NCBI GenBank assembly: GCA_023265925.1
Contig: JAHFSD010000002.1
Location: 2,569-66,568 of the forward strand
Length of the DNA: 64,000 bases
From: an archaeon
GTDB taxonomy: Archaea > Nanobdellota > Nanobdellia > Woesearchaeales > GW2011-AR9
Reading direction: 5' to 3'
The notes under the pieces are model-generated. The model was not told the DNA's origin and ran no database searches. It saw nothing but the letters and a program-made list of their open reading frames with translations. Positions within the stretch are counted from its first letter, which is position 1. Every line of letters begins with the position of its first letter. Position numbers and translations under genes: made by a program. Shown in pieces: positions 2,962 to 22,062 of this stretch.

Positions 2962-3213
2962 ATGGTCAGGAAAGCATTTGTTGATAAAGATATCTGTATT
3001 GGCTGTACTGTCTGTAGTTCTCTCTGCCCGGATGTTTTTACCGTGAAGGAGGATCCCCATTACCAGTATGGGTTTAAGAGCTTCACCAACGATTCTGTCG
3101 ACCAACAGCCCATCGAGAAGCAGGTTCAGGAGGCTATCGACACCTGTCCGGTGCAGTGTATCAGTTGGCGGGAAAAGAAAGAGGTTCAAGAGTCTGCCCT
3201 GGTCGAGCCTTAG
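2962..3213 (+). CDS. 4Fe-4S ferredoxin (single-cluster type)
   Basis: CIGCTVCSSLCP ... CPVQC cysteine pattern in an 83-aa ORF immediately downstream of the radical SAM gene. Confidence 0.75.
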   Translation: MVRKAFVDKDICIGCTVCSSLCPDVFTVKEDPHYQYGFKSFTNDSVDQQPIEKQVQEAIDTCPVQCISWREKKEVQESALVEP

Positions 3214-4163
3214 CTGGTAGAACTGCTTCGTGGAGAGGTGGCATCCAACCCTTCTTTCACGACCTGAATAATCTTTGCGGTGGTTATTCCATATCGTTCC
3301 ATCATGCTAGCCTGGCTTCCATACCCTTCCATAAACTGGTTGGGCAAGCCGATACGCTGGAACCATTTCGGCCGTTGGTAGTGCTGCTCGGCTAAAAACT
3401 CGGCGATGGCACTCCCTAATCCGCCGATGATTGAATGTTCTTCAATGGTTACGATTACCGGAATGCGGGAAAGATGCTGCTGCAATGCTGGTATGTCTAA
3501 CGGCTTGATCGTGTGCAGATGCAGCACCGTTGCCCGAATCCCCTCCCGCTCCAGCTCAACCGCTGCCTCCAGCGCATTTTTGAGGGTGATTCCCGTGGTG
3601 ACGATCAGCGCATCCTTTCCCTCGCGCAGGCAAATTGCTTTCCCGATCGCAAATGGAAGGTCTGGACGGGAGACGATGGGATCCCCCCCCTTGGCTACCC
3701 GGATATAAATTGGTCCGGGATGATCCACAGTCAAGGGCATAAACCTTCTCATTTCTTCCGCATCGGCTGGACAAACAATAGTCAGATTAGGTATCACTCG
3801 CAAAATAGCGATATCATCGATAGCTTGGTGGGTTGGCCCTAAATTGGCATAGACGACCCCGCCGCCATTGGCAATCAGCCTGACCTTGGCTTTATGCAAA
3901 CCCAAATCGATCACGATCTGCTCAAAACAGCGCCGGGTTAGAAACGTGGCAATGGTATTAACGTAAGGAATTTTTCCCTCTAATGCTAACCCTGCTGCCA
4001 TCCCAATAATATTTGCCTCGTAAATTCCTTCCATAAAAAAGCGTTCGGGCATCTCCTCTTTAAACTGCTTTAGAACACCAAATCCTAAATCCGAGCCAAT
4101 GAAAAAAACTTTATCATTCTTCTTCGCCAGTTCATACACCATATCTAACACTACTTTTCTCAT
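3210..4163 (-). CDS. transketolase, C-terminal (pyrimidine-binding) subunit
   Basis: MRKVVLDMVYELAKKNDKVFFIGSDLG...FFMEGIYEANIIGMAAGLALEGKIPYV is typical of split transketolase TktB. Overlaps the upstream gene by 4 bp. Confidence 0.8.
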   Translation of the reverse strand: MRKVVLDMVYELAKKNDKVFFIGSDLGFGVLKQFKEEMPERFFMEGIYEANIIGMAAGLALEGKIPYVNTIATFLTRRCFEQIVIDLGLHKAKVRLIANGGGVVYANLGPTHQAIDDIAILRVIPNLTIVCPADAEEMRRFMPLTVDHPGPIYIRVAKGGDPIVSRPDLPFAIGKAICLREGKDALIVTTGITLKNALEAAVELEREGIRATVLHLHTIKPLDIPALQQHLSRIPVIVTIEEHSIIGGLGSAIAEFLAEQHYQRPKWFQRIGLPNQFMEGYGSQASMMERYGITTAKIIQVVKEGLDATSPRSSSTS

Positions 4164-6061
4164 GCTGACCTCAATCCGGCATATAATGCTTTAAATTCAT
4201 CAGCGGTAATGGCGCTCTTATGATGCCAGGCAAAATTTCTCTCGAGGAAAGGAAGACCCTTGCCCTTAACAGTATGACAAATGATTGCGCTCGGTTTGGC
4301 TTGTTCGACTGGCAAGTGGGAGAAGACATCGTCAAGCTGATCAATATCATGCCCATCAACTTCCCGAACACCAAACCCAAAACTTCTCCATTTATCAGCC
4401 AATGGTTCTAAATCCTGTACTTCAAACGTGGAATTACAGGACTGCTGTTTGTTATAATCAATGATGACGGTGAGATTGCTGAGTTTATGCTTCCCGGCAC
4501 ATAAAGCTGCTTCCCAGATAGAACCCTCATTAGACTCTCCATCACCGATCACCACAAACGTACGAGAACTGGTTTTCTCATATTTGGCATTAATGGCAAA
4601 GCCCACTCCTATCGGCAGACCATGACCCAAACTTCCCGTTGATACCTCCACGCCAGGAATAAGGTGTTCGGGATGTCCTCCGAGGATGCCATCACTCTTA
4701 CAAAACTTCCACAATTCAGCTTCAGGGAAGAAACCTTTCTCAGCGAGGATAACATACAAAGCGAGACAGCCATGTCCTTTACTCAGAATAAACCGATCCC
4801 GATAAGGCCAGCGGTGATTTTGATGATCATAGTGTAGAATCTTGTCGTATAGTACTCTCAACACTTCCATGATCGAGAAGGCTGAAGGGAGGTGCCCACG
4901 CTGGGTCGATTTTTGTACCATTTCCACCACTTTCTCTCGTAGTTGTATTGATCGCTCATCCAATTTCACTCTACTCACGGGCGTGGTATAGAAATAAGGA
5001 AAACTCTCATATTCCCGCAAAATTTTAGCCAGCAGGGCTTCGGCTTTAATTAACTGTTGCTGCTGGCGCTGTTCTCTTTCTATTCTTTCCTGATCGGCAA
5101 ACTCCCTTCGCTGCAAATATTCCGGCACAAACTCATTGAGTAAGATCGTGCACCACTTTAACCCAAACAAAGGATAGACCAATTCTACTCGTCCCAGCAA
5201 ATTCGGATGCCCGGTAAACACTTCCGGCATAGTGAGCACAAATTCCCGTTGTAAATCATGAGATAACGACATTCCTGGATGCAACAGGAAGTCAGCGACA
5301 GTCTTCGCTGGATCATCCCAGCCAAAATATTCAAAATCTATAAATACTATCTGGCCGTCATCTAAGCGCAGGGCATTATGAAAGCCAAAATCAGAAGGAC
5401 TTAGTATTCGTTCTTCCGGGCTAAGGTCGGCATAAAAAGAAAAACCGTGCCGGTTTAAAGTATACTTACACCACTTGACAATTTTTTCAAAGGCCGGCCT
5501 GAACTGCTGCTGTAAGAAATCATGCAGTTTATGTTCTATCACTGTTTGTTGCGGAACGGCCTTAAGGCGCTGTAACCGCTGTTCTATTGAGGCCACCATG
5601 GCCTGCAGCGAAAAACAGGCTTCCGATGCCGGAGAGAAAAGAGTGCTTCCTGGTCGTGCTTTAAGTTGATTTATGTTCGCCAGAAACTGACCAGCCACCG
5701 TAATATCATCACTGGTAACTTCTTCGGAAGAAATTTTTTTTCCGGGTATAAACTCATAAATTCCCCAGCCTTGCTCCAGGTTCATGGCGATGGGCTTAGG
5801 GACGCAGGTCAGGTTATGCTGCCAGAGAAATTGCAGAGTGTTAAACTCGACTCCGAGCCGGTTTCGGTGATCAAAATTATCACGAAAATAGTGCTTGGCG
5901 ACATAATTCGTTCCATCGGCACACGGAACTTTATACACCCGACTATTCCTTCCCCCCCCTATTTTGTGGAGAGAGAGAGCATTTTTTCCTACTAAGTCTG
6001 AGATGATCGGGAGAAGTATGTCGCCGGTTTTTTCACTATTAGTGGGGGAAGAAGTCGTCAT
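4160..6061 (-). CDS. fusion protein: APH/choline-kinase-like phosphotransferase domain + transketolase N-terminal (ThDP-binding) subunit
   Basis: N-terminal half has kinase motifs (DFGFHNALRLDDGQIVFIDFEYFGWDD). C-terminal half has SKGHGCLALY...GSLGHGLPIGVGFAINAKY...VVIGDGESNEGSIWEAA (transketolase N). Start set to MTTSSPTNSEK (ATG at 6059-6061) rather than 6163. Confidence 0.7.
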   Translation of the reverse strand: MTTSSPTNSEKTGDILLPIISDLVGKNALSLHKIGGGRNSRVYKVPCADGTNYVAKHYFRDNFDHRNRLGVEFNTLQFLWQHNLTCVPKPIAMNLEQGWGIYEFIPGKKISSEEVTSDDITVAGQFLANINQLKARPGSTLFSPASEACFSLQAMVASIEQRLQRLKAVPQQTVIEHKLHDFLQQQFRPAFEKIVKWCKYTLNRHGFSFYADLSPEERILSPSDFGFHNALRLDDGQIVFIDFEYFGWDDPAKTVADFLLHPGMSLSHDLQREFVLTMPEVFTGHPNLLGRVELVYPLFGLKWCTILLNEFVPEYLQRREFADQERIEREQRQQQQLIKAEALLAKILREYESFPYFYTTPVSRVKLDERSIQLREKVVEMVQKSTQRGHLPSAFSIMEVLRVLYDKILHYDHQNHRWPYRDRFILSKGHGCLALYVILAEKGFFPEAELWKFCKSDGILGGHPEHLIPGVEVSTGSLGHGLPIGVGFAINAKYEKTSSRTFVVIGDGESNEGSIWEAALCAGKHKLSNLTVIIDYNKQQSCNSTFEVQDLEPLADKWRSFGFGVREVDGHDIDQLDDVFSHLPVEQAKPSAIICHTVKGKGLPFLERNFAWHHKSAITADEFKALYAGLRSA

Positions 6062-6755
6062 GTAAAATCCTCCAATGGTGAAATAAAAAGATCTTCTCAA
6101 TGGATGCTTGCCGGGCCTGAGGATCATATAACCACTTCCGCACGCCTGCGGGAAAATCAGCATTTACAAAGACCTCGATCAAATCATCAATAAAATCAGT
6201 GCAACCTAATTGAATAAGGCGCTTTACTTTTTCCTCTTGCGTCGACTCAAAATAGACCTGCTCGGGAGCCAGGCCTAAAGTAGGGTCATCAAAAAAGTGC
6301 TGCTCCCGCATCCACGACCATGCCGCTTCCCGCAAATTGACTCCTCCTCCGGATAAGTTAGAGTACATCGTCTTGTGGCTGATAATATAGACTGGAACAT
6401 GGTGCTGCTTACAGGCCGTCAAAAAATCCCGCACTCCTTGGTGTAAAGTAGCCCCCGCAATGGCGTTACCATACGCTTCCACCTGGATTTCCTGCCATTG
6501 TAACTCTCCGCCCGGAAGTTTTCGAATCGTATCCCGGACAGTTCGTTTGTTTTTTGGCACTGCCGAAGAGATCAGGCCTTTTTGTAATGCCAGAGAATGT
6601 ATCACGGGTTCATAACTAATAATCGTATTATCAAAATCAATGCCAATGATCAGTGGTCTTACCGGCTGGGGAGCGGGGGATATTAAGGGATCCATCATTG
6701 TAGGAAAATAGATAATATTTATACTTAAAGATGGTCGAGTTTGCTTTATAAACAT
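6039..6755 (-). CDS. HAD-superfamily phosphatase-like protein
   Basis: DxD motif I (IGIDFDNTI) and a C-terminal DD motif (CTDFIDDL). Confidence 0.5.
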   Translation of the reverse strand: MFIKQTRPSLSINIIYFPTMMDPLISPAPQPVRPLIIGIDFDNTIISYEPVIHSLALQKGLISSAVPKNKRTVRDTIRKLPGGELQWQEIQVEAYGNAIAGATLHQGVRDFLTACKQHHVPVYIISHKTMYSNLSGGGVNLREAAWSWMREQHFFDDPTLGLAPEQVYFESTQEEKVKRLIQLGCTDFIDDLIEVFVNADFPAGVRKWLYDPQARQASIEKIFLFHHWRILHDDFFPH

Positions 6756-6793: not shown

Positions 6794-7909
6794 TTAGGCC
6801 CAGGCCTCAAAGAACTTCTTAACCTGTTTTATAACCAAGTCTACTTCTTCATCAGTCAACTCCGGATAGATCGGAAGACTTAAGATTCTCTTGCCTTGTC
6901 TTTCACATACGGGAAAATCTCCTTCTTTGTATCCCCAGCTTTGAGCAGCTGGTTGCAGGTGTATTGGAATGGGATAATGTATTTTGGTTTCAATACCCTG
7001 CTCGAGGAGGTAGTTCTGTAATTCGTCTCTGGCAGCACACTCGATTATGAACGTATGATATACCGGCAGCTCATACGGTTGATCCCGGGGGACTTTTACT
7101 AGGCCAGCAAGACTTTCCGTATATTTCAAGGCGATGTTTCTTATTCTCTCATTCCACTGGTCTAAATATTTTAGTTTTATGTTCACTACAGCCGCTTGGA
7201 TACAATCTAATCTGGAGTTGTATCCCCACAATTCACTTTCGTTTCGATTTCGTAATCCGTGGTTCCGCAGTTTGATGATTTTTTCGTATACTTCTCTATT
7301 GTTGGTGGTAATCGCCCCCCCATCTCCGGCTGCGTTGAGATTTTTAAGGGGATGAAAGCTGAAGCAACCGGCGATTCCGAAGGACCCCACCATTTTCCCA
7401 TAATATTTTGCTCCCACTGCTTGTGCTACATCTTCTATCACAGGTATTTTATGTTTATCGGCAATCTCTAAAATCCTGTTCATCTCCGCTGGCCTTCCCG
7501 TCAAATGGATTGGAATGATGGCTTTAGTTCTAGATGTAATCGCTGCTTCGATCAGGTCCGGGTCGATATTGAAATCTTCTTTCACATCTATGAATACTGG
7601 AGTGGCCCCCACCGCGACGATGGCTCCGACTGTTGCCAGGAAAGAATTGGGAGCGGTGATCACTTCATCACCGGAGCCGATATTCAGGCTCTTAAGGCAG
7701 AGAATGATGGCATCGGTTCCATTGGCTACACCCAGAGCATAGCCAGTGCCGCAGTACGTCGTGAAGTTTTTTTCAAATTCTTGAAGCGTTTTTCCTAAGA
7801 TGAATTCTCCCGATTCAAAAAGAGGGATAATGCTCTTCAGGATTTTTTCACGAAGCGGTTTGAACTGCCGGTGAAAATTAGTGTATTTAATTGTGTTCAC
7901 GGTTATCAC
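6794..7909 (-). CDS. DegT/DnrJ/EryC1/StrS-family PLP-dependent sugar aminotransferase
   Basis: SFHPLKNL (PLP lysine), DGGAITTN, and family-typical N-terminus. Confidence 0.85.
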   Translation of the reverse strand: MITVNTIKYTNFHRQFKPLREKILKSIIPLFESGEFILGKTLQEFEKNFTTYCGTGYALGVANGTDAIILCLKSLNIGSGDEVITAPNSFLATVGAIVAVGATPVFIDVKEDFNIDPDLIEAAITSRTKAIIPIHLTGRPAEMNRILEIADKHKIPVIEDVAQAVGAKYYGKMVGSFGIAGCFSFHPLKNLNAAGDGGAITTNNREVYEKIIKLRNHGLRNRNESELWGYNSRLDCIQAAVVNIKLKYLDQWNERIRNIALKYTESLAGLVKVPRDQPYELPVYHTFIIECAARDELQNYLLEQGIETKIHYPIPIHLQPAAQSWGYKEGDFPVCERQGKRILSLPIYPELTDEEVDLVIKQVKKFFEAWA

Positions 7910-7933: not shown

Positions 7934-9043
7934 TCAGGGCAAAATGTAATGGTAAAATGTGGTAATAGTTTCAATAACATATTCTATTTGTTCCGGCGTA
8001 AGGTGCTGGTGCACTGGAAGCGAAATTATTTTTCTGGCTTGCTCTTCGGCAACCATAAAATCACCCGTCTGATAGCCCAAGTACTGGCTGGCCTGTTGAA
8101 GATGTTGTGGTAGGGGGTAATGTATTTTACAGTCAATCTCCCGCTCTCGAAGATAACGGTATAATTCGTCCCGGCGTTCGGCCATAATCACATAATTGTG
8201 ATACACGTGTTTTACGCCTGGCGTTCGTGGAGGGATGGTTATTTCTGATATCTTTGCGAGCGCTTGATCATAGCGGTTGGCGTGGTGGATTTTGCGGTTA
8301 ATAATCCAATCTACCTCTTTCATCAGGTGCAGCCCGACAATCGCCTGGAGGGGATCCAGTCTGCTGTTATAAGCATAAAACAGGCATTCATCCCGATTTT
8401 TCAGCCCGTGATTTCGCAATAGGAGAAGTTTGTCTCGCAGCTGTTCCGAATTGGTTGTAATCACTCCTCCATCCCCCCAGACATTTATTGGTTTTAGAGG
8501 ATGAAGACTGAAACAACCGGCATCGCCGAATGATCCGGTTCTTTTTCCATTGATTTCGGCACCAATCGCCATACAGGCGTCTTCTATTACTGTGAGGTTA
8601 TGTTTTCTCGCCAATTGGCTTATTTTTTCCATCTCTGCGGGACAGCCATGCCAATGCACTGGTAAGATCGCTTTCGTTTTGGGAGTTATGGTTTTCTCTA
8701 TTAAGTCTGGGTCGAGAGTATAATCTTCTTTGACATCGACATACACGGGGCGCGCTCCCACGGTTACAATGGCACCGATCGTAGCAAAGAAAGTGCTGGG
8801 AGTGGTAATCACTTCATCACCAACCCCAATACCAAAAGCGATGAGTGATAATCGTAAGGCATCAGTTCCCGAAGCAACGCCGATAGCAAATTTGGTGTGG
8901 CAGAGTGTGGCAAAGTTCTGTTCAAATTCTTCAAGATGTTTGCCTAAAGTAAATTCTCCGGAACGGATCAGGCTTTTGATATCGTTCAAAATAGGATCAG
9001 GGTCAGTAAATTGTTCTGACAGGTAAGAGTAACTTACTTTCAT
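7934..9043 (-). CDS. DegT/DnrJ/EryC1/StrS-family PLP-dependent sugar aminotransferase (paralog)
   Basis: SLHPLKPINVWGDGGVITTN; overall collinear with 6794-7909. Confidence 0.85.
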   Translation of the reverse strand: MKVSYSYLSEQFTDPDPILNDIKSLIRSGEFTLGKHLEEFEQNFATLCHTKFAIGVASGTDALRLSLIAFGIGVGDEVITTPSTFFATIGAIVTVGARPVYVDVKEDYTLDPDLIEKTITPKTKAILPVHWHGCPAEMEKISQLARKHNLTVIEDACMAIGAEINGKRTGSFGDAGCFSLHPLKPINVWGDGGVITTNSEQLRDKLLLLRNHGLKNRDECLFYAYNSRLDPLQAIVGLHLMKEVDWIINRKIHHANRYDQALAKISEITIPPRTPGVKHVYHNYVIMAERRDELYRYLREREIDCKIHYPLPQHLQQASQYLGYQTGDFMVAEEQARKIISLPVHQHLTPEQIEYVIETITTFYHYILP

Positions 9044-9182
9044 GATGATTTCTCTTGTTGCTTTTTTATTACTCCTGATTATTGCGTTCTATGAAGGAAC
9101 CATATTAAAGAAGCATATTTTCTTACTTTAATAAAGTTTAAATAGGCTGGTGGAACCGAATGGAGCAAGGTTTAAATACTTA

Positions 9183-10226
9183 ATGAAAAAGGCTATCATC
9201 ACCGGCGGAGCAGGATTTATCGGATCGCATTTGGTAGAATTATTGCTCCAGGAAGGCTTTACCGTGATTGTTCTGGATAATATGTCCAACGGGCAGTTAG
9301 ATAATGTAGAGTTGTTTAAAGATAATCCACGATATCACTTCTATCAGGTTAATTTGGCAGAAGAATTCGATGACTCTGTTTTTAAGGATATAGATTATGT
9401 CTTCCACCTCGCTGCTTTAGCCGATATTGTCCCTTCCATTGACGAGCCGTTCAAGTATCATCAAGCCAACGTCACGGCCACGATTCGCGTTCTGGAAGCC
9501 TGCCGGAAATATGGCGTAAAAAAGTTAGTATATAGTGCCTCTAATTCCTGCTACGGAATTCCTGACTCCTATCCCACTCCGGAGACGGCGGAAATCAAGC
9601 CGGAATATCCTTATGCCTTTATGAAAGCCATTGCCGAGCAGTATGTGCTGTTCTGGGGCAAAGTGTACAACATTCCCGTAATCTCCCTGCGCTATTTTAA
9701 TGTCTTTGGAACGAGAGCAAGAACGAATAATACCTATGGAGCCGTGTTTAAAGTCTTCCTGACCCAGAAACTGCATGACCAGCCGTTAACGATTGTCGGT
9801 GATGGCAGGCAAACTCGTGATTTTACGTACGTCACGGATATTGCTCGGGCCAATTTACTGGCGGCCGAATCAGAGATACAGGGAGAAATTATCAACATCG
9901 CGACGGGGAAACCACAGTCAGTTAATTATCTCGCCCAGTTAATTGGCGGTTCCACCGTGAGTATTCCCCGGCGTCCTGGAGAGCCTGATTCGACGCATGC
10001 GGATATTTCCAAAGCCAAAGCGCTTTTAGGATGGGAACCAGAAGTTTCCTTTGAAGAAGGCGTAAAAATCATGCTGGAAAATATTGACTATTGGCGAACG
10101 GCGCCATTATGGAATTCTGAATCTATCGGGAAAGCGACGGAAAACTGGTTTCGATATCTTGCTAAAGAAAATCCTACCAAGGGAAATACTGCCAGAGAAA
10201 ATACTGCCGGAGGAAACGATGAGTAA
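9183..10226 (+). CDS. NAD-dependent nucleotide-sugar epimerase/dehydratase (extended SDR)
   Basis: ITGGAGFIGSHLVELLL Rossmann motif and YxxxK-type SDR. Start set at MKKAIITGG. Confidence 0.8.
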   Translation: MKKAIITGGAGFIGSHLVELLLQEGFTVIVLDNMSNGQLDNVELFKDNPRYHFYQVNLAEEFDDSVFKDIDYVFHLAALADIVPSIDEPFKYHQANVTATIRVLEACRKYGVKKLVYSASNSCYGIPDSYPTPETAEIKPEYPYAFMKAIAEQYVLFWGKVYNIPVISLRYFNVFGTRARTNNTYGAVFKVFLTQKLHDQPLTIVGDGRQTRDFTYVTDIARANLLAAESEIQGEIINIATGKPQSVNYLAQLIGGSTVSIPRRPGEPDSTHADISKAKALLGWEPEVSFEEGVKIMLENIDYWRTAPLWNSESIGKATENWFRYLAKENPTKGNTARENTAGGNDE

Positions 10227-11238
10227 CGCTAAACAGCGAGTTCTCATTACCGGGGGAGCAGGCTATGTTGGTTCAGTGTTAGTCCCTTTACTTGTCAATA
10301 AAGGATATCCCGTCACGGTACTGGACACTTTTTGGTTTTGGGATTCACCGCAGCAGTATCAAGAGACTATTGGGTTAAGCAACGCTGCATTATTACGCCT
10401 TGTCCAGGGAGATCTCCGCAACAAGGAAGATATCCGTCAAGCCCTGACAGAAGTAGAAAGTGTCATTCATCTGGCCTGTATTTCTAATGATCCCAGTTCA
10501 GATTTAGATGCGGGGTTTACGCATGCGGTGAATTATACCGGTTCGCTGAATGTTATTGATCTTGCTAAGGAAAAAGGTGTGAAACGGTTCATCTATGCTT
10601 CATCCAGCAGTGTCTATGGAATTAAAAGTGAACCAAATGTTACGGAGGATCTCCCTTTAGAACCGTTGACGCAGTATTCCAAGTTAAAAGTAGAAGTGGA
10701 ACATTATCTCCTGCATCGGCTGGATGATGATTTTAAAGGGGTCATTATTCGTCCTTCCACGGTCTGCGGCTATTCTCCCCGGCAACGGCTCGATGTGGTG
10801 GTAAATCTTTTGACCAATTTAGCCCTGAACAAAGGAAAAATTAAAGTGATGGGTGGAAACCAATTGCGCCCAAATATTCACATGAAAGATATGGTGCGAT
10901 TGTATGAGCTGTTGCTGGAAGTGCCCATCGATAAAATCAACAAAAAAATTTACAATGCCGGCTACGAGAATCGAACGGTGCTGGAACTTGCCCTGCTGGT
11001 TAAAGAGGTGATGGGCAAGGTCACCATGGAGGTTGAAGAAACTACTGATCTTCGGTCTTATCATGTTTGTTCTGATAAAATCAGGCAGGAAATTGGCTTT
11101 GCGTCAGAGCATACGGTGAAGGGGGCGATTATGGAGCTGAAAGAAGCTTTTGAACAGGGTAAAATTAAAAATAGTGATGATGAGAATAATTTTAACGTGA
11201 AGAGGATGAAAACGTTGTTGGAACGAAGGGAAACATGA
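10219..11238 (+). CDS. NAD-dependent nucleotide-sugar epimerase/dehydratase (extended SDR)
   Basis: VLITGGAGYVGSVL; YASSSSVYG. Start at MSNAKQ with GGAGG 9 nt upstream. Overlaps the previous gene by 8 bp. Confidence 0.8.
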   Translation: MSNAKQRVLITGGAGYVGSVLVPLLVNKGYPVTVLDTFWFWDSPQQYQETIGLSNAALLRLVQGDLRNKEDIRQALTEVESVIHLACISNDPSSDLDAGFTHAVNYTGSLNVIDLAKEKGVKRFIYASSSSVYGIKSEPNVTEDLPLEPLTQYSKLKVEVEHYLLHRLDDDFKGVIIRPSTVCGYSPRQRLDVVVNLLTNLALNKGKIKVMGGNQLRPNIHMKDMVRLYELLLEVPIDKINKKIYNAGYENRTVLELALLVKEVMGKVTMEVEETTDLRSYHVCSDKIRQEIGFASEHTVKGAIMELKEAFEQGKIKNSDDENNFNVKRMKTLLERRET

Positions 11239-11246
11239 TGCAATTA

Positions 11247-12974
11247 CTATTTCTTCACCAGCTCATACGCCCAGTGGGCAACGCGTTCCGACGATTTCCC
11301 ATCGATGATCGTACAGAACTCTTTCACCATCTTCTGCCTTTCTTTACGCAGCAGGGAGGGGTTGCCGAGCAACTTTTTGATAGCAGGCCGGAGTGATTCT
11401 CTCTCCCAGACGTACAGGGAAGGATCAAAGCCGCCATATTTGCCACTCTTCTTTTGATTGTAGGGGAAGGTGATGGAAGGAACGTCTAAAATCGATGCCT
11501 CCAGCACGCCGGCGGTGGCAAAGAAATTTATCACCACCTTTGCCTCTGCAAGCAGGCGGTAAAGAAGGTTCAGTTCTCCTTTCTGCCGGATGGAGATTCT
11601 TCTGCTCTTAATCTTTCCCCCTTCCAGACGCTGAGCGAGCTCTTGATATCTCTTTATGCCTTTCTCTCGGGGATGTAATTTTATGGTAATGCTGGTCCCG
11701 GGAATGGCCAGTATTTCTTTCAGAACCGTTTCAACCATCTTAAAATAGGCCTTCGTGGAGATTAAATTGTCTTCGATCAGCGGCTGAGTGAGCAGAAGAA
11801 GGTTTTGCCCCGGAGCTGTCTTTGTTCGCTGTTTTACCACCTGATATTTTACAATATTATCATACATGGCAGGACCAGTAACACGAAACTGCTTTTCTGA
11901 TAGGCCTGATTTGATGAAAGTATCTGCTGTTTTCTTGTTGAAGATCGGAAGATACATGTTATCAAGCACGTCCTGGGGTGGAAGATTTCCGATAGCATAT
12001 CCATGTGGCACGAGCATACAGGGAATTCCTTGAGTTTTAGAAGCAGCGGCCAGACAGCGCTCTAACAGGCCATTCTGGCCGGAAATGAAAGTAATGGCGA
12101 CATTCTCTTCTTCAATGATTTTTTTACCGGCTTCATAGTACATCAGTGTGATGAAGAGAAACTCCTTCGACATGAACAAAGAAAAAGCCGGAGAGAGATA
12201 AGGCCATAGCTTATGGTTGTTAACTTTCAAACCCCCGGCGATCATGGCGGTATCCAATTGCTTCCACTGCCCCACAATCTGGGCGGCCTGCTGCTCTGCC
12301 TTGAGTTTAATTTCCTCGTCACAATAGTGGTAGATGGTGCAAAAATCAGGATAATTACTAGAAAAATCCTGCAGGCTTTTTTTGTTTAGGGAGGACAGTG
12401 GTGTCACAAAAAGAGGAAATGGTTCCAGCAGGGCGTCCTGGTGCAGCACATCAATGATACTTTGAATACGATAAAGTTGATTCTCCTCACTAAGATGATC
12501 AGGATAGGTTAAGAAAATGGCTTTTGGCGTATCGGTCTGTCCATGGTGGGCGGAGGTATATTTTTTCCCCCTCTTTGTTGATTGCCGGAAGGCTGCGTTC
12601 ACTTTCCTTCGTTCATTAAAGAGAAGGTATTTCTTTATTACTAACGAGGACAGCTGTAACTGGAGCTGTCGGAGAGGAGTTAGTTCCTTGGCTTCGAGCA
12701 GCTCTTCATAGGTGTTCAGCGGCCGGGGCAGGACATGTTTCAGCAGGTAGCGCTTATAAAACCAGAAGAGGGGGATACTATCTACCTGGAACAGCTCATC
12801 GAAGGATTTTCCATTCGATAATTTTCTGCTGCTAAACACCTTCTGCAACCAGCCTTGGATGAAATCTTCCATCTCGTTCAGGGGTGGTTGCCATGCATTA
12901 AATTTATAAACCTTGTCAAACCCTAATCTCACAGAACAGGAGCGCTGCGGGAGTACTGAAATTAAAAATCCCAA
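11247..12974 (-). CDS. GT-B fold glycosyltransferase-like protein, possibly a CMP-nonulosonate-dependent (sialyltransferase-like) transferase or TagF-like
   Basis: 575-aa protein with a C-terminal region containing an HP motif (ITIKLHPREKG), a hallmark of GT-B sialyltransferases. Assignment is by motif only. Confidence 0.35.
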   Translation of the reverse strand: MGFLISVLPQRSCSVRLGFDKVYKFNAWQPPLNEMEDFIQGWLQKVFSSRKLSNGKSFDELFQVDSIPLFWFYKRYLLKHVLPRPLNTYEELLEAKELTPLRQLQLQLSSLVIKKYLLFNERRKVNAAFRQSTKRGKKYTSAHHGQTDTPKAIFLTYPDHLSEENQLYRIQSIIDVLHQDALLEPFPLFVTPLSSLNKKSLQDFSSNYPDFCTIYHYCDEEIKLKAEQQAAQIVGQWKQLDTAMIAGGLKVNNHKLWPYLSPAFSLFMSKEFLFITLMYYEAGKKIIEEENVAITFISGQNGLLERCLAAASKTQGIPCMLVPHGYAIGNLPPQDVLDNMYLPIFNKKTADTFIKSGLSEKQFRVTGPAMYDNIVKYQVVKQRTKTAPGQNLLLLTQPLIEDNLISTKAYFKMVETVLKEILAIPGTSITIKLHPREKGIKRYQELAQRLEGGKIKSRRISIRQKGELNLLYRLLAEAKVVINFFATAGVLEASILDVPSITFPYNQKKSGKYGGFDPSLYVWERESLRPAIKKLLGNPSLLRKERQKMVKEFCTIIDGKSSERVAHWAYELVKK

Positions 12975-13217: not shown

Positions 13218-13802
13218 ATGACCAAAGATATCATCGTTGAATACCATCAGGGAAGATGCATTGGTGCACAGAAATGTATTGAAGCTGCACCAGCTTACTT
13301 CTCTTTTGATGGGGAAAAAGCCGTCTTGTTGCTTTCTCAGCAGGAAAATGGTAGCAGCGTTCTCCGCCTGCGGATGAATGAAGAACAGCTTTTGCGGATC
13401 AGGAAAGCAGCGGAATTGTGCCCGGTGAATGCCATTAAAGTAGCCGACGCCGAAGGCAACATTCTCGTTTCCGATACGGTCGAAGTTCAGCAGCAGGGAT
13501 TACGGGAAATCACCGCAGAATACGATGACTTGAAAGAATTTGTTATGGATAAAAAAGGATATTTTCTCATCCGCATTGACCAAAGCACCAACAAAATTGA
13601 AGTGGCCTTTTGCCCCGAATTAAACAAAATCGTGGTCAAAGTAACCGGCAGGAAGCCGTTAGAGATTTACCAGACCATTATTAAGCAGGGCCTGATCTCA
13701 AGGTTAGATCATGCTGCCTACCTTGGCCGGGAATTGCAAAAGGCCTACATTGCTTTGCAGAAGAATATCCTTTATGTACAAGATGATGAGCTTGTTCTTT
13801 AA
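13218..13802 (+). CDS. ferredoxin-like domain protein (N-terminal Cx5C...CP mono-cluster ferredoxin domain + uncharacterised C-terminal domain)
   Basis: RCIGAQKCIEAAP...ELCPVNAI. Divergent from the radical SAM gene 13827-15620. Confidence 0.45.
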   Translation: MTKDIIVEYHQGRCIGAQKCIEAAPAYFSFDGEKAVLLLSQQENGSSVLRLRMNEEQLLRIRKAAELCPVNAIKVADAEGNILVSDTVEVQQQGLREITAEYDDLKEFVMDKKGYFLIRIDQSTNKIEVAFCPELNKIVVKVTGRKPLEIYQTIIKQGLISRLDHAAYLGRELQKAYIALQKNILYVQDDELVL

Positions 13803-13826: not shown

Positions 13827-15620
13827 TTAGGCCGTGATCATTTGAGCAGTCTGGTCGACGATGGCCTTTTCCACCTGAATAGCCTGGTCCACACTGATCT
13901 TTCCTCCCTGAACTATCACCTGGACAGCTCCATTGTCCTGCCCATTTCCAGAAACCTCTTTCTTTCCACCAAGGTTACTCTTCTGCCGTGATTCTTTATC
14001 ATAGCGGCGCGCTCCCCTAAACTTGTAATCGCCTTCCAGGTACAGCCGACGATACCCTTCAATAATCTGGTTAGCTTCTTCCAAATCACCTCCAGCATTA
14101 CGAAAATGATGAAAGACAAGCTCTTTGTTTGCCTCAAAAAGCATCTCATTACATTCCTGGTCGGAAAAGCGTGTGAAATTAAATGTTATTAGGTCTGAAT
14201 TCCTGAACTTCTTAAAGAAATCATCCGGTCCTGAGATGATACCTTTCTCTATCGCCTGGTAATATAATGGTGATCCCGGATAAGGAGTAGGCGGTCTGAT
14301 GGTGCGCACCTGATCAAAACGGGTATAGGTTTTAATGGCTTTCACATTCTTCCAAAGAGTTTCTTTTGTATCTTTTTCGAAACCCCAGATAAAGTTAAGT
14401 CCCATGCCGATCTCCACTTTATTTGCTACTTGGAGCGCTTTGAGGTTATCCTCCGCCGTCACCCTCTTGTTCATCTCATCGAGAACAGTTTGATCAACAC
14501 TCTCAAAGCCGATATTGACAAACAAGCATCCGGCCTTTTTTAAGGATAAAGCGACCTCTTCATCGAATAGCGGCGCCCGGGAATTACAGCACCACTTAAC
14601 ATTCAAATTATTTTCTTTGAGCAGCCGTTCAAATTCAAAAACTCTGTTCCGGGGAAAGGTTGATAATTCTTCCAGGAAGTGAAAATAAGTTATACCATAT
14701 TTTGCGGTCAGGTATTTCATCTCTTTAATGATCTCATTCAGGTTGCGCAGGCGCAGGCCTTTCTCGATTCGGTAACAGAAACTGCAGGTATCAGTGCACC
14801 CCCGATTAGCGATGATCGCACAGGTTTTTTCATCACTATCCATCCCCGCCATTCGCCAGCTTTGCGTATAGCTTTCCATGGGAAAGAGGTCCCAGGCAGG
14901 CCAGGGCAGCGAGTCTAAATCACGAAAGACTGGGCGGCGGGGATTTACCTTGACCTGATCACTTTCCCAATAAGTAATTCCTTTGATCTCGCTCAAGCGG
15001 CGCTTGCCCAGTTTGGCATCCATAACTTCAACAATACTGTGCTCAGCTTCTCCCATCAACACCAAATCAGCTCTTGTCCGCTGCAGCATATATTCTGGAA
15101 TGGGCGTTGGACCAGGGCCGCCCAGGAAAAACCAGGCATTTTTTTTGTATTTGTTCACGGATTCGCACAAGCCAACAATGGTTTCTTCAAATCGGGCCGG
15201 CATGAATCCTGCCCCGATAAGGTCATATTCGCTGTTCAAAAGCTTCTTCTCCAGTTGGGCATTAGTGTAATGGAAGACGTCCATGCAGTACACTTCAACG
15301 CTATAGCCTGCTGTTTGCAGCATGGCTGCCAGGTAGCCATAAGCCAGAGGAAAGACATTAAAATCCTGATAAACATCATGGATTATGAGGAGGACGTTTT
15401 TCTTCCAGGGATGGTTGATTTCAATACCTGTTGAAATTGAAGGAATAATTCCCGTTGAAGAACTACCGGCTAAAGAATCGCCTCCTAAAGAATTACCAGT
15501 TAAAGAATCACTTTCTAAAGAATTACCAGCTAAAGAAATACGTGCTGAAGATTGAGCTGAATTTCCATTCATTTCACCATTCCCTCCAACTGTAGGTATA
15601 GGTAAACTATCCACCATCAT
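13827..15620 (-). CDS. B12-binding (class B) radical SAM enzyme with an N-terminal pentapeptide-repeat low-complexity region
   Basis: NRGCTDTCSFCYR (CxxxCxxC) and an upstream B12-binding-like region. The N-terminus is encoded by 15-nt tandem repeats (GNSL/GDSL). Confidence 0.8.
   Translation of the reverse strand: MMVDSLPIPTVGGNGEMNGNSAQSSARISLAGNSLESDSLTGNSLGGDSLAGSSSTGIIPSISTGIEINHPWKKNVLLIIHDVYQDFNVFPLAYGYLAAMLQTAGYSVEVYCMDVFHYTNAQLEKKLLNSEYDLIGAGFMPARFEETIVGLCESVNKYKKNAWFFLGGPGPTPIPEYMLQRTRADLVLMGEAEHSIVEVMDAKLGKRRLSEIKGITYWESDQVKVNPRRPVFRDLDSLPWPAWDLFPMESYTQSWRMAGMDSDEKTCAIIANRGCTDTCSFCYRIEKGLRLRNLNEIIKEMKYLTAKYGITYFHFLEELSTFPRNRVFEFERLLKENNLNVKWCCNSRAPLFDEEVALSLKKAGCLFVNIGFESVDQTVLDEMNKRVTAEDNLKALQVANKVEIGMGLNFIWGFEKDTKETLWKNVKAIKTYTRFDQVRTIRPPTPYPGSPLYYQAIEKGIISGPDDFFKKFRNSDLITFNFTRFSDQECNEMLFEANKELVFHHFRNAGGDLEEANQIIEGYRRLYLEGDYKFRGARRYDKESRQKSNLGGKKEVSGNGQDNGAVQVIVQGGKISVDQAIQVEKAIVDQTAQMITA
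15469..15555 (-). repeat. in-frame 15-nt tandem repeat (about 5 units) encoding xxDSL/GNSL pentapeptide repeats at the 5' end of the radical SAM gene
   Basis: taaagaattaccagY / taaagaatcRc units seen directly in the sequence. Confidence 0.6.
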
Positions 15621-21042: not shown

Positions 21043-22062
21043 ATGGTCATCATTGCCGGCAGGGAAATTAAGAATTTTAGTGAACCTTTCATTATAGCTG
21101 AAGTCGGCTCTAACCATAAGGGGGATCTCGCATTAGCCAAGCACTTGATCGATAAAGCAGCGCAATGCGGTGCGGACAGCGTTAAATTCCAGGTGTGGTC
21201 TAAAAAAAGCTTATTCAGCAAGGTGGTCTTCGCCAATAGGCCGGAGCTGGAAGAACAGATTGAACGCTACTCTTTGTCTCTGCCTGATTTCAAAGAACTT
21301 AAAGAATATGGTGATGCCCGGGGAATCATGATCTCAGCTTCAGCATTCTGCAAGGAAGAAGTGGATTTTTTGGTTAGGGAGGTCAATGTAGCCTACCTTA
21401 AAGTAGCTTCGATGGATGTTACTCATCTCCCCTTCCTGGAGTATGTAGCCCAGCAGGGCAAGCCGATAGTCATGTCTACGGGGCTAGCCAGCATTGCTGA
21501 AATTGATGAAGCAGTAACTGTCATTCACCGTTATAACCGTAACTTAATACTGCTTCACTGTACCAGCTTGTATCCTCAACAGGATGAACAATCTCATCTC
21601 AATAATCTCCCATTTTTACAGGAAACCTTTAATGTTCCGGTGGGCTATTCTGACCATAGTTTAGGTATAACTATTCCATTAGGTGCTGTCGTAAAAGGAG
21701 CGTGCTTGTTAGAGAAACATTTTGCTTTAAATAATCAAGATGAGAAGATTTGGGACCAAAATTTCTCCGCCAGTCCAGAAGAATTGAAGAATTTAGTTGT
21801 GGAAAGTAAAAGGTTAGTGAGAGCTTTGGGCAACATTCGGATAACGCTGGATGCAGCCAAACTAAAACAGCGGGAAGTCATGAGGAGAAGCATAGTAACA
21901 TCGCGGCATCTGCCACAAGGACATATTTTAACTATAGAAGATCTCCTTTTCAAGCGCCCGGGAACTGGTCTGGAGCCCAAACAGGTGGCGATTGTGATTG
22001 GAAAACAACTTAAGCGTGATCTTGCACCTGATACTTTGTTAACTTGGGCCGATTTGTTGTAA
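21043..22062 (+). CDS. N-acetylneuraminate/legionaminate/pseudaminate synthase family (NeuB/LegI/PseI-like) with C-terminal SAF domain
   Basis: FIIAEVGSNHKGDLALAKHLIDKAAQCGADSVKFQ. GAGGAGG SD upstream. Confidence 0.85.
   Translation: MVIIAGREIKNFSEPFIIAEVGSNHKGDLALAKHLIDKAAQCGADSVKFQVWSKKSLFSKVVFANRPELEEQIERYSLSLPDFKELKEYGDARGIMISASAFCKEEVDFLVREVNVAYLKVASMDVTHLPFLEYVAQQGKPIVMSTGLASIAEIDEAVTVIHRYNRNLILLHCTSLYPQQDEQSHLNNLPFLQETFNVPVGYSDHSLGITIPLGAVVKGACLLEKHFALNNQDEKIWDQNFSASPEELKNLVVESKRLVRALGNIRITLDAAKLKQREVMRRSIVTSRHLPQGHILTIEDLLFKRPGTGLEPKQVAIVIGKQLKRDLAPDTLLTWADLL

Follow-up and report, generated by a model that had tools for sequence, protein, structure and literature searches.

A sugar-biosynthesis cluster in a 64,000-nucleotide stretch of woesearchaeal DNA (the window) encodes a transketolase in two parts, whose ThDP-binding half is fused to a small-molecule kinase and stands beside a HAD-fold phosphatase (Table 1). 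This arrangement raises the question of which reaction would call for a kinase, a phosphatase and a transketolase together. The three genes are a fused version of a conserved cassette of HAD phosphatase, APH kinase, transketolase N-terminal subunit (TK-N) and transketolase C-terminal subunit (TK-C), which recurs in surface-sugar clusters across many bacterial phyla and whose probable reaction is the attachment of a two-carbon unit to a keto sugar, giving a sugar not yet described. Building on the observed domain architecture, conservation, active-site remodelling and gene context, we tentatively read the cassette, with a probability of about 0.4, as a transferase that places a hydroxyacetyl (C2 ketol) group on a 4-keto sugar bearing an activating nucleotide, the sugar probably being a heptose, with the kinase and phosphatase adding and removing a transient phosphate.

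Table 1. Cassette genes and adjoining features of the window (positions in nucleotides).
Feature	Position	Strand	Remarks
Small 4Fe-4S ferredoxin	2962..3213	+	Convergent on the TK-C gene; Pfam Fer4_13 / Fer4_15
Transketolase Pyr + C-terminal subunit (TK-C)	3210..4163	-	317 aa; Pfam Transket_pyr, Transketolase_C
Transketolase N-terminal (ThDP pyrophosphate-binding) domain (TK-N)	4160..4969	-	C-terminal part of the kinase fusion polypeptide
APH/choline-kinase-like small-molecule kinase domain	5027..6061	-	First ~345 residues of the fusion protein (633 aa)
HAD-fold phosphatase	6039..6698	-	219 aa; mechanical ORF 6755..6039, likely start 6698
DegT-family sugar aminotransferase A	6794..7909	-	Pfam DegT, E 1e-114
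DegT-family sugar aminotransferase B	7934..9043	-	Orthologous (48-57% identity) to the module's second DegT elsewhere
Extended SDR 'a', 4-epimerase/decarboxylase-like	9150..10226	+	Orthologous (51-57% identity) to an SDR of other cassette loci
Extended SDR 'b'	10219..11238	+	Closest solved structure 6vo6

The fusion gene lies in an open reading frame (6163..4160) of 667 aa, in which the ATG at 6061, with GGAGG 8 nt upstream, is the likely start of a 633-aa protein. The HAD gene runs 23 nt past the kinase start, and the ATG of TK-C shares an ATGA with the TGA stop of the fusion gene, an overlap by which TK-C is predicted to be translationally coupled to the fusion gene. Most genomes carry the kinase and TK-N as separate genes with an overlap of a few bases, and a one-base error could join them. 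However, there is almost no chance that the fusion arose from an assembly or frameshift error or that the gene is a pseudogene. Pfam places APH and Transketolase_N in a single uninterrupted frame with no stop between the domains, an identical 633-aa protein is recorded in both NCBI and ENA on two contigs (67.6 and 48.3 kb), and the catalytic residues are all conserved in both domains. The architecture also recurs: among the best 115 homologues, 44 are kinase::TK-N, three HAD::kinase::TK-N and two HAD::kinase, and there are 47 independent fused proteins, with 40-86% identity, across deep branches. One fused protein nests amid unfused ones. In a search with the kinase profile, about 16 of the best 150 matches were proteins of 512-594 aa in which the kinase forms the C-terminal part.

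Over 30 genomes in more than ten phyla carry the unfused four-gene cassette, HAD-kinase-TKN-TKC, always within glycan clusters, and the HAD and kinase genes remain adjacent even where they are split from the transketolase genes. The cassette usually comes with a divergent heptose-nucleotide pair (HldE/GmhA), a Cj1427-like SDR and DegT aminotransferases; an HldE-like gene accompanies it in 27 of 36 loci and a GmhA-like gene in 20 of 36, with the cassette following them, and a Zn-alcohol dehydrogenase (Zn-ADH) gene lies downstream in 14 of 36. The window has no HldE-like, GmhA-like, class-I methyltransferase or Zn-ADH gene, all companions of the cassette elsewhere. The genes near the cassette in the window are those for two DegTs, two SDRs, B12-radical-SAM proteins, NeuB, a CMP-synthetase, GT4s and STT3. 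Since the cassette travels elsewhere with HldE- and GmhA-like genes, and NeuB homologues occur within 10 kb in only two cassette loci, it is not tied to this window's NulO genes. The sequence-only reading had described a kinase::transketolase-N fusion with a TK-C and a HAD phosphatase in a sugar cluster, outside canonical nonulosonic-acid pathways, and this description holds throughout: Pfam (PF00456, PF01636, Transket_pyr, Transketolase_C) confirms the domain calls, and no clustering with pentose-phosphate genes was found, the transketolase family being associated solely with sugar-tailoring genes.

TK-N matches Transketolase_N (E 4.4e-40, nt 4942-4184) and, among solved structures, best resembles 6yak, the N-subunit of the split transketolase of Carboxydothermus hydrogenoformans (E 2.3e-65). 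The GDGE...DYN motif is invariant, as are the residues that correspond to human H37, H77, H110 and H258, and the histidines that hold the dihydroxyethyl-ThDP intermediate are all conserved. TK-C matches Transket_pyr (E 2.8e-30) and Transketolase_C (E 3.9e-27), with 6yaj as its best structural match (E 1.7e-63). Relative to human transketolase it retains E366 and R318 and has His for Q428, as does the C. hydrogenoformans enzyme, and it carries the replacements H416 to G, E423/D424 to N/L, S345 to G and R474 to K. The changes at H416, D424 and S345 occur in every cassette member of the alignment, in which human transketolase, 6yaj and two other loci (L059 and L076) have the canonical acceptor residues. 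While the C. hydrogenoformans enzyme shares the two-gene architecture and is the closest solved structure for both halves, it is a genuine transketolase with H, GED and S at the acceptor positions, where the window enzyme has G, ANL and G, and it has no kinase fusion. The residues for ThDP binding and ketol transfer are intact, and the Asp, His and Ser for reading a sugar-phosphate acceptor are lost. On the acceptor side, the enzyme lacks two of four phosphate ligands and the Asp for recognition of the acceptor C2-OH; two positively charged phosphate ligands, R318 and the lysine at position 474, are kept.

These non-canonical residues, present in all members, make it very unlikely that the enzyme is an ordinary transketolase paralogue that raises the supply of sedoheptulose-7-phosphate for a heptose-nucleotide pathway. 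The co-occurrence of GmhA-like and HldE-like genes would fit such a role, as would the bona fide transketolases among the closest structures. However, the cassette is also found without GmhA or HldE, the kinase and phosphatase fusions are left unexplained, and close relatives lie in CDP-deoxyhexose clusters, where sedoheptulose-7-phosphate is irrelevant.

These relatives are informative about the acceptor. In the TK-C tree, the cassette clades are nested inside a glycan-cluster superclade that is separate from canonical transketolases and from a catabolic clade associated with FGGY kinases and ABC transporters. Kinase-less members of the superclade have their transketolase genes close to the CDP-glucose pathway genes RfbF/G/H. 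In Paenibacillus chibensis (L067), they follow RfbH, RfbF and RfbG (739, 446 and 505 bits; cut-offs 423, 300 and 278) after one further SDR gene, and RfbF/G/H homologues are also present in L033, L039, L041, L044, L054 and L078. RfbF/G/H make CDP-3,6-dideoxy-4-keto-hexose. This compound is the known acceptor of the ThDP enzyme YerE (PMC12247030), which in the yersiniose A pathway of Yersinia pseudotuberculosis is encoded after genes for a nucleotide-activated 4-keto sugar and transfers a C2 unit onto the ketone to form a branched sugar. The kinase-less transketolases sit near RfbF/G/H just as YerE does. Given this nesting among RfbF/G/H-linked split transketolases and the loss of the Asp, His and Ser, a nucleotide-activated 4-keto sugar is a likelier acceptor than a free phosphorylated sugar. 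YerE itself, however, belongs to the decarboxylase/acetolactate-synthase family of ThDP enzymes, uses pyruvate as donor and forms an acetyl branch, whereas the cassette has a split transketolase with histidines for a hydroxylated C2 unit, a presumed hydroxyacetyl branch, and a kinase and phosphatase; the two share no sequence homology beyond the ThDP fold.

The same chemistry has been proposed, but never shown, for the split-gene transketolases of miharamycin and amipurimycin biosynthesis, in which a keto sugar would receive a hydroxyacetyl group (PMC12247030, section 2.3). Compared by description only, they are likewise split into TK-N and TK-C within a sugar-building cluster and are preceded by a putative ketone-making oxidoreductase (PMC12247030), but they putatively act on a nucleoside antibiotic intermediate in Streptomyces. 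The 13 split-transketolase candidates identified bioinformatically in biosynthetic gene clusters are all streptomycete (PMC12247030). The cassette, by contrast, occurs within surface-glycan clusters in more than ten phyla, and its transketolase is fused or coupled to the kinase and the HAD phosphatase.

In the window, both SDRs and both DegTs have orthologues in cassette loci elsewhere, and the assignment of a heptose to this genome rests on these two SDR and two DegT orthologies at 50-57% identity. In 18 of 32 cassette loci, the HldE-like gene is preceded by an SDR gene orthologous (51-57% identity) to SDR 'a'. SDR 'b' is the commonest SDR partner of the cassette, preceding it in 23 of 32 loci (at least 40% identity). 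Its best PDB match is 6vo6/6vo8 (E 1.3e-34, at only 123 bits), of which 6vo6 is presumably Cj1427, a GDP-heptose C4-dehydrogenase. Orthologues of DegT A (44-52% identity) adjoin the cassette in seven loci (L003, L006, L014, L016, L018, L020 and L026), and its best structural matches include QdtB, DesV and WbpE, which we take to be C3-aminotransferases. In the Campylobacter jejuni GDP-heptose pathway, Cj1427 oxidises a nucleotide-heptose at C4 to a reactive 4-keto intermediate that is then tailored (PMC10680097). The resemblance to this pathway lies in SDR 'b'; the 4-keto heptose of C. jejuni is epimerised and reduced, unlike that proposed here, and no ThDP enzyme, kinase or phosphatase takes part.

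In combination, these data suggest a scheme whose donor, acceptor, phosphate position and product are drawn from gene context. With hydroxypyruvate or a ketose phosphate as ketol donor, the split transketolase would take up a dihydroxyethyl (glycolaldehyde) unit and, instead of handing it to an aldose phosphate, attach it at the carbonyl group of a keto sugar activated by a nucleotide. The likeliest acceptor would be the 4-keto derivative of an NDP-heptose from the adjacent Cj1427-like SDR, and the product a C-hydroxyacetyl-branched nine-carbon sugar. This sugar may then be modified by aminotransferases and methyltransferases, and in other genomes also by the Zn-ADH. YerF reduces the branch carbonyl in the yersiniose pathway; the Zn-ADH, and an aldo-keto reductase encoded upstream of the transketolase in four relatives, are candidate reductases of the new branch carbonyl. 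A point against the scheme is that R318 and K474 would suit a sugar phosphate no less than a nucleotide diphosphate.

Structure comparisons of the kinase and HAD proteins offer no hint of a substrate. Over nt 5968-5246 the kinase matches PF01636 with E 1.2e-12 and 48.5 bits (cut-off 23.2), and G37 and N39 of the GRNS loop, K56, E72, D224-x4-N229 and D242 (DFE) are invariant. The kinase family counts 2677 representatives of 50%-identity clusters at E<=1e-30. Its AlphaFold (AF2) model (pLDDT 92) has a generic APH/ChoK fold, with best PDB matches at TM 0.6-0.7 and 12-16% identity. The HAD protein has no Pfam match and only a sub-threshold NCBIfam match to MtnX-like HAD-IB (22.8 bits against 81.55), and none of its 438 homologues is named. 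The four HAD motifs (DFDNT, SHKT, K and DD) do not vary among cassette homologues, and the Foldseek matches of its AF2 model (pLDDT 94) are HAD phosphatases in the PDB (among them MtnX, a deoxyribonucleotidase and AphA), none of them close. Its HAD subfamily is a Pfam orphan whose cap is inserted directly after motif I.

As this sole library match is MtnX-like, MtnK has the APH fold (rank 37 among kinase structure matches) and the window holds at least two B12-radical-SAM genes, the enzymes might salvage a radical-SAM by-product, with an MtnK-like kinase, an MtnX-like phosphatase and the transketolase turning 5-deoxyribose or methylthioribose into a 7-deoxy-heptulose-type compound. The odds of this are slimmer still than those of sedoheptulose-7-phosphate supply: the HAD match is far under threshold, the kinase is no nearer MtnK (TM 0.46) than other APH proteins, homologues of the window's two B12-radical-SAM genes are in only a few fetched loci, and the strict synteny is with nucleotide-sugar enzymes.

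In the branching scheme, the kinase and phosphatase, coupled physically or translationally to the transketolase, would phosphorylate the acceptor or product transiently, the phosphate being added by the kinase and later taken off by the phosphatase. The HAD::kinase, kinase::TK-N and HAD::kinase::TK-N fusions link the three activities and make such a phosphate-handle role plausible. As the kinase-less relatives act on 6-deoxyhexoses, the heptose side chain (O7/O6) is a candidate position. Branching does not require either enzyme, and their role is its weakest link.

The same fusions would fit consecutive steps around one phosphate in a chain extension at the sugar-phosphate level, the main proposal of the sequence-only reading. 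Here the kinase would act on a free (amino)sugar, the transketolase would add C1-C2 to its aldehyde, making a ketose longer by two carbons, and the HAD protein would dephosphorylate that ketose. Where HldE- and GmhA-like proteins are encoded, these divergent enzymes could isomerise the new ketose phosphate and activate it with a nucleotide; both score far below the NCBIfam cut-offs of the true enzymes (115 against 521 bits and 89 against 209), so their substrate might be another ketose phosphate. Binding of a phosphate by R318 and K474 would still be possible, and NUDIX hydrolases in two loci (L082 and L087) could free a sugar from its nucleotide. The logic would be analogous to that of two known routes. 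ManNAc kinase and the HAD-type Neu5Ac-9-P phosphatase bracket the sugar-lengthening C-C step of Neu5Ac-9-P synthase, and in the LmbR-N-P-K-O route to the GDP-octose of lincosamides an isomerase, kinase, phosphatase and nucleotidyltransferase activate the new sugar. In these routes, a PEP-condensing synthase or a transaldolase forms the bond, not a transketolase, and we know of no such gene fusions in them and no homology to the cassette kinase. Chain extension is nevertheless less likely than branching: the acceptor C2-OH Asp and two of the four phosphate ligands are gone, no isomerase, PfkB kinase or nucleotidyltransferase lies near the cassette in the window, L085 or L087, and sister transketolases occur in clusters holding only nucleotide-sugar enzymes. 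Some loci (L003, L082) additionally encode a genuine GmhB, and the HAD protein is therefore not simply a GmhB replacement. Of the earlier proposal, the ketol chemistry and a branched or extended sugar stand, in line with the conserved histidines, but the phosphorylated acceptor is less likely, given the lost Asp, His and Ser; handling of the phosphate by the kinase/phosphatase pair stays plausible, though dispensable for branching.

It is uncertain whether the ferredoxin belongs to the module. No counterpart was found in the remaining cassette loci compared, but on contig P0002 a ferredoxin and a B12-binding gene likewise lie downstream of the cassette. The ferredoxin probably serves the adjoining B12-radical-SAM methyltransferase (669-2846).

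The window encodes a protein in which an APH/choline-kinase-like kinase is fused to the ThDP-binding half of a transketolase (TK-N), and the gene is flanked by those for a HAD phosphatase and for the remaining transketolase half (TK-C). The sequence-only reading had called these three genes; all are on the minus strand, and open reading frames, Pfam matches and, for the HAD protein, motifs and an AlphaFold model bear out their positions and domains. The most likely start of the fusion gene is the ATG at 6061, which has GGAGG 8 nt upstream and yields the same 633-aa protein as in public archives, while the start codon of TK-C lies inside the fusion-gene stop, as ATGA. An assembly artefact, which that reading had named as a possible refutation, can be excluded as the origin of the fusion: the frame is unbroken, an identical protein record is held in NCBI and ENA on two contigs, and the fusion recurs in homologues.

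Features of the window considered in this section (window coordinates)
Feature	Position	Strand	Description
B12-binding radical-SAM genes (KedN5-like C-methyltransferase)	669-2846; 13827-15620	+; -	each with a small 4Fe-4S ferredoxin
Small 4Fe-4S ferredoxins	2962-3213; 13218-13802	+; +	one with an additional pterin-binding DUF4346 domain
TK-C gene	4163..3210	-	transketolase pyrimidine-binding and C-terminal domains (Pfam)
Kinase::TK-N ORF, 667 aa	6163..4160	-	Pfam APH, E 1.2e-12, and Transketolase_N, E 4.4e-40; single unbroken frame
HAD phosphatase gene	6698..6039	-	four HAD motifs; capped HAD fold in AlphaFold model
SDR-a	9150-10226		51-57% identity to cassette partners elsewhere
SDR-b	10219-11238		mostly 45-54% identity to cassette partners elsewhere
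DegT-A and DegT-B			mostly 46-57% identity to cassette partners elsewhere
575-aa ORF	11247-12974	-	weak alpha-2,8-polysialyltransferase-like match
NeuB	21043-22062
CMP-NulO-synthetase-like gene	22488-23249
Second APH-family kinase	23293-24303	+	adjoins CMP-NulO-synthetase-like gene and NeuB
Small HAD hydrolase	24258-24734	-	adjoins CMP-NulO-synthetase-like gene and NeuB
Acyl-decoration set	24.7-30 kb	-	Antibiotic_NAT-family N-acetyltransferase, acyl carrier protein, GNAT, 5-formyltetrahydrofolate cyclo-ligase, formyltransferase, AMP-dependent ligase, phosphopantetheinyl transferase
STT3 oligosaccharyltransferase, 1044 aa	37160-40294	-	C-terminal PPIC-type peptidyl-prolyl isomerase domain fused
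ATP-citrate lyase subunits	40366-42183; 42902-44143	-	SDR between

Among the 115 top homologues, 44 are kinase::TK-N fusions, three are HAD::kinase::TK-N fusions (855-857 aa), two are HAD::kinase fusions and 66 are stand-alone kinases. In the kinase-domain tree, fused proteins occupy several deep branches, and one of them (P0006) is nested within unfused proteins. At E<=1e-30, the kinase-domain profile retrieves 2677 representatives of clusters at 50% identity; among its best 150 matches, about 16 have the HAD::kinase form, with a length of 512-594 aa and the kinase C-terminal. In unfused genomes the kinase stop overlaps the TK-N start by a few bases, so that loss of a stop codon suffices for fusion.

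Scanning a single genome for each species gave 80 loci (L numbers below), and clustering of their ORFs revealed the order HAD, kinase, TK-N, TK-C in more than 30 of them. Hosts of this cassette include Bradyrhizobium sacchari, Bradyrhizobium sp. SSUT77, Nitrospirillum iridis DSM 22198, an Akkermansia MAG and Kamptonema, as well as members of the Rokubacteria, Nitrospirota, Omnitrophota, Myxococcales, Coxiellaceae, Acidobacteriota, Verrucomicrobiota and Dehalococcoidia. The HAD and kinase genes are still neighbours in seven loci where they lie apart from the TK genes. No study of the cassette was found in the literature on split transketolases and heptose or O-antigen sugar genes. A link to bradyrhizose, raised by the two Bradyrhizobium genomes with the cassette, was rejected, as the described 11-gene cluster is without a transketolase and belongs to other strains.

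Both TK halves have their closest solved structures in 6yak and 6yaj, from the Carboxydothermus hydrogenoformans split transketolase. Residues were numbered by placing the human TK sequence, identical to PDB 4kxu over 623 residues, on an alignment of 80 TK-C sequences. The ThDP/Mg motif is invariant in the fusion protein as GDGE (D507, G508, E509) and DYN (N537), and the cofactor-activating Glu (human E366) is found in all sequences of the TK-C alignment. The catalytic histidines (human H37, H77, H110 and H258) correspond in the fusion protein to invariant H390, H430, H463 and H613, and the position of human Q428 (yeast H481) is His. From the sugar-phosphate binding set (human R318, S345, H416 and R474), only R318 is kept; S345 is replaced by G, H416 by G and R474 by K in the window, in almost every cassette member and in the majority of glycan-cluster split TKs. 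In addition, the position of human D424 (yeast D477) is occupied by Leu in the window and in every cassette member except L079, which has Asn. The motif GED thus reads ANL or APL in cassette TK-C proteins, with E423 and D424 replaced by P or N and by L, respectively, and a gap-free HMMER alignment to 6yaj agrees (ATHAGLTVGEDG vs ANGGGVVYANLG). The canonical acceptor residues are present in human TK, 6yaj, L059 and L076 in the same alignment. In transketolases, recognition of the C2-hydroxyl on an aldose acceptor falls to this Asp, and the phosphate is bound by the His and the Ser. Since the catalytic residues are kept while the acceptor residues are replaced, the window TK is predicted to retain C2 ketol transfer in a rebuilt acceptor pocket. 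The two-carbon ketol chemistry proposed in the sequence-only reading appears broadly right. A plain transketolase supplying S7P is contradicted by these pocket residues and by cassettes without heptose genes.

The relatives of the cassette enzymes provide clues to the acceptor. In the TK-C tree, canonical enzymes are outermost, followed by a clade associated with FGGY kinases and ABC transporters, and then by a superclade of glycan-cluster enzymes that contains two cassette clades. In kinase-less members of the superclade, nucleotide-sugar genes are found near the TK genes. In Paenibacillus chibensis NBRC 15958 (L067, 4371-12468 of that locus), the gene order is LegC-like aminotransferase, RfbH, glucose-1-phosphate cytidylyltransferase, CDP-glucose 4,6-dehydratase, SDR, TK-N, TK-C and methyltransferase, and the scores of RfbH (739 bits, cut-off 423), the cytidylyltransferase (446, cut-off 300) and the dehydratase (505, cut-off 278) are well above threshold. 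The split transketolase of this locus is kinase-less and of the same non-canonical type, and NeuB- and CMP-synthetase-like genes are also present. RfbF/G/H homologues accompany the TK at seven further loci, among them L033, L039, L041, L044, L054 and L078, and an aldo-keto reductase lies 5' of the TK in four other superclade loci. The product of RfbF/G/H is CDP-3,6-dideoxy-4-keto-hexose. YerE, which is ThDP-dependent and creates the two-carbon branch in yersiniose, uses this compound as its physiological acceptor (PMC12247030). Additionally, transfer of a hydroxyacetyl group onto a keto sugar by split-gene transketolases has been proposed, though not shown, for miharamycin and amipurimycin (PMC12247030).

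As in YerE systems, the ThDP gene of these relatives thus lies near genes for makers of 4-keto sugars, and the candidate equivalent in the window is the product of SDR-b, the commonest SDR partner of the cassette. The best solved match of SDR-b is 6vo6 (E 1.3e-34, 123 bits), which we take to be Cj1427. Cj1427 oxidises GDP-heptose to a 4-keto sugar (PMC10680097). Unlike YerE, the TK proteins match only the transketolase, DXS and E1 families and no ALS-type domains; the mechanism would be alike, but the family is not.

The split TKs of the FGGY/ABC clade (L055, L060, L061, L063, L065, L066, L068, L071 and L077) also lack the canonical Asp, have the motif GELGPTH and are linked to a carbohydrate kinase and ABC sugar transporters. 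These enzymes look catabolic, and the sole Streptomyces locus fetched, L063, is among them.

The usual operon around the cassette has the order SDR-a, HldE-like, GmhA-like, SDR-b, often two DegT aminotransferases, cassette and class-I methyltransferase. At the 36 cassette loci, an HldE-like protein (a cytidylyltransferase-like domain followed by PfkB) occurs 27 times, a GmhA-like isomerase 20 times and the methyltransferase after the cassette 27 times. Against the NCBIfam models for the true enzymes, both the HldE-like and the GmhA-like proteins fall far short of the cut-offs. The methyltransferase is followed by a Zn-alcohol dehydrogenase (14 loci) or by a LIC12192-family pair, TIGR04323/TIGR04324 (13 loci), and a WbuC cupin and an RmlD-like reductase are also listed at the downstream end. 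The best solved relatives of DegT-A include QdtB, DesV and WbpE, which are C3-aminotransferases.

TIGR04323 (LIC12192 family) and TIGR04324 (2OG-Fe(II) oxygenase), known as 'sporadic carbohydrate cluster' proteins, lie near the cassette in L011, L013, L016, L018, L020, L024, L027, L032, L035, L045 and L082, and directly 3' of it in most of these loci. The product of this long-known orphan cluster may be the same modified heptose as that of the cassette.

The likeness of SDR-b to 6vo6, that of DegT-A to its solved relatives, and the HldE-like and GmhA-like genes together point to a pathway on an oxidised NDP-heptose. In such a pathway, the NDP-heptose would be oxidised before the ThDP step, and the ThDP-bound glycolaldehyde carbanion would then attack the oxidised sugar to give a hydroxyacetyl-branched nine-carbon sugar. 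The Zn-alcohol dehydrogenase could act as the reductase for the carbonyl of the branch, and the product could be decorated by methyltransferases and by aminotransferases. The boldest form of this reading, to which we assign a probability of roughly 0.3, is that the cassette TK is the first natural member of the transketolase family to act on the ketone of an NDP-4-keto-heptose, with the fused kinase and the phosphatase placing and removing a transient phosphate on the side chain. The resulting, hitherto undescribed 4-C-hydroxyacetyl (or, if reduced, 1,2-dihydroxyethyl) C9 sugar would be carried on surface glycans or N-glycoproteins in more than 10 bacterial phyla. The main rival is the model of the sequence-only reading, according to which a free sugar is phosphorylated, extended at C1 and then dephosphorylated. 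This chain extension is compatible with the same fusion types, but the acceptor pocket is rebuilt, and no isomerase or nucleotidyltransferase lies near the cassette in window-type loci.

The kinase belongs to the APH/choline-kinase-like family (PF01636, 48.5 bits, cut-off 23.2), and its catalytic loop (D224...N229), Mg-binding D242 and ATP-binding K56 and E72 are invariant in the cassette. The AF2 model (pLDDT 92) matches APH(9), LicA, NahK and Mph with a Foldseek probability of 1.00. Against PDB sequences, the single query gave no significant match and a 35-sequence family profile none better than E 0.13, and the best structural matches (12-16% identity, TM 0.5-0.7) reflect the generic APH fold. 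The kinase falls outside the subfamilies of known substrate that were tested: MtnK, NahK/AmgK, LicA, FN3K, ThiK and the aminoglycoside kinases. The phosphatase is assigned to the HAD superfamily by the invariant motifs D21-F-D23-N-T25, S107-H-K-T, K157 and D171-D172, and its AF2 model (pLDDT 94) has a capped fold whose PDB matches are generic HADs. Among curated models, it has no Pfam match and reaches 22.8 bits with NCBIfam TIGR01489 (MtnX-like HAD-IB), below the cut-off of 81.55; none of 438 HAD homologues has a Pfam domain. In PDB and Foldseek searches, neither protein has a close characterised relative or a structural match that hints at its substrate.

Since sister TKs manage without a kinase and HAD, synthesis of the donor is an unlikely task for this pair. 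The sister TKs are found with 6-deoxyhexoses and the cassette with heptose genes, which favours transient phosphorylation of the heptose side chain. Speculatively, the phosphate group could hold the substrate in place, or could prevent formation of a hemiketal in which the 7-hydroxyl hides the 4-ketone. A logic of 'install - react - remove' agrees with the three types of fusion.

Several other roles were rejected. A thiamine kinase serving the cofactor was suggested only by a COG-style label on some homologues, and salvage of a radical-SAM by-product had the sub-threshold HAD match as its sole basis. Replacement of GmhB by the HAD is at odds with the true GmhB in L003 and L082, and replacement of an anomeric heptose kinase by the APH protein with the PfkB domain already in the HldE-like protein.

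To our knowledge, very few enzyme types make branched and higher-carbon sugars, reaction of a transketolase with a ketone, and with a nucleotide sugar, has been postulated in the case of two antibiotics and never demonstrated, and the coupling of a transketolase to a kinase and phosphatase has no precedent. As judged from sequence, new here are a widespread four-gene cassette with a putative role and recurrent fusions, a signature that separates cassette TKs from true transketolases (Asp to Leu, His to Gly and Ser to Gly), and a contextual link to 4-keto nucleotide sugars. The family offers a large and phylogenetically broad test set for transketolase action on ketones of nucleotide sugars, with culturable hosts in B. 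sacchari, N. iridis, P. chibensis and Kamptonema; in P. chibensis, the proposed branching on CDP-3,6-dideoxy-4-keto-hexose is directly testable. If the reading is true, C-branched heptoses would have a new route of synthesis and alpha-hydroxylated tertiary alcohols a new biocatalyst, and the reading would explain the 'sporadic carbohydrate cluster' of thousands of genomes.

The version of the module in the window is minimal. A tblastn search of the whole 64-kb window found no HldE-like, GmhA-like, class-I methyltransferase, Zn-alcohol dehydrogenase, GmhB, WbuC or LIC12192-family gene. The four genes adjoining the cassette (SDR-a, SDR-b, DegT-A and DegT-B) are orthologues of its usual partners elsewhere, and the two further fused relatives that were examined likewise have a minimal set, two SDRs with the cassette, and no heptose genes within 10 kb. 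NeuB and the CMP-synthetase of the window are 15-19 kb from the cassette (15-25 kb with the acyl-carrier genes), and only two other loci have a NeuB homologue within 10 kb of it and one a CMP-synthetase, so that there is no steady co-occurrence with a NeuB/PseI/LegI synthase and a CMP-NulO synthetase. Given this distance and the rarity of NeuB at other loci, the cassette module is autonomous and not a tailoring set for nonulosonic acid (NulO). The earlier framing as NulO tailoring on a phosphorylated sugar is thus probably wrong, both for the distance of the NulO genes and for the rebuilt acceptor pocket.

The second APH-family kinase and the small HAD hydrolase have no detectable similarity to the cassette kinase or HAD, and may mark a route to NulO through a phosphorylated intermediate. 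The acyl-decoration set implies unusual N-acyl or N-formyl groups on amino sugars, and the 575-aa ORF is possibly a NulO transferase or polymerase. After the cassette, a ferredoxin and radical-SAM pair fills the place that the class-I methyltransferase takes in most other genomes. The STT3::PPIC protein suggests that the glycan of the large cluster is put on proteins. The ATP-citrate lyase subunits hint at a host with the reverse TCA cycle, possibly Nitrospirota-like, and together with the STT3 gene they speak against a cyanobacterial source. The synteny of ATP-citrate lyase, STT3, GT2 and GT4 genes recurs beside a fused cassette in another of the fetched loci, L085.
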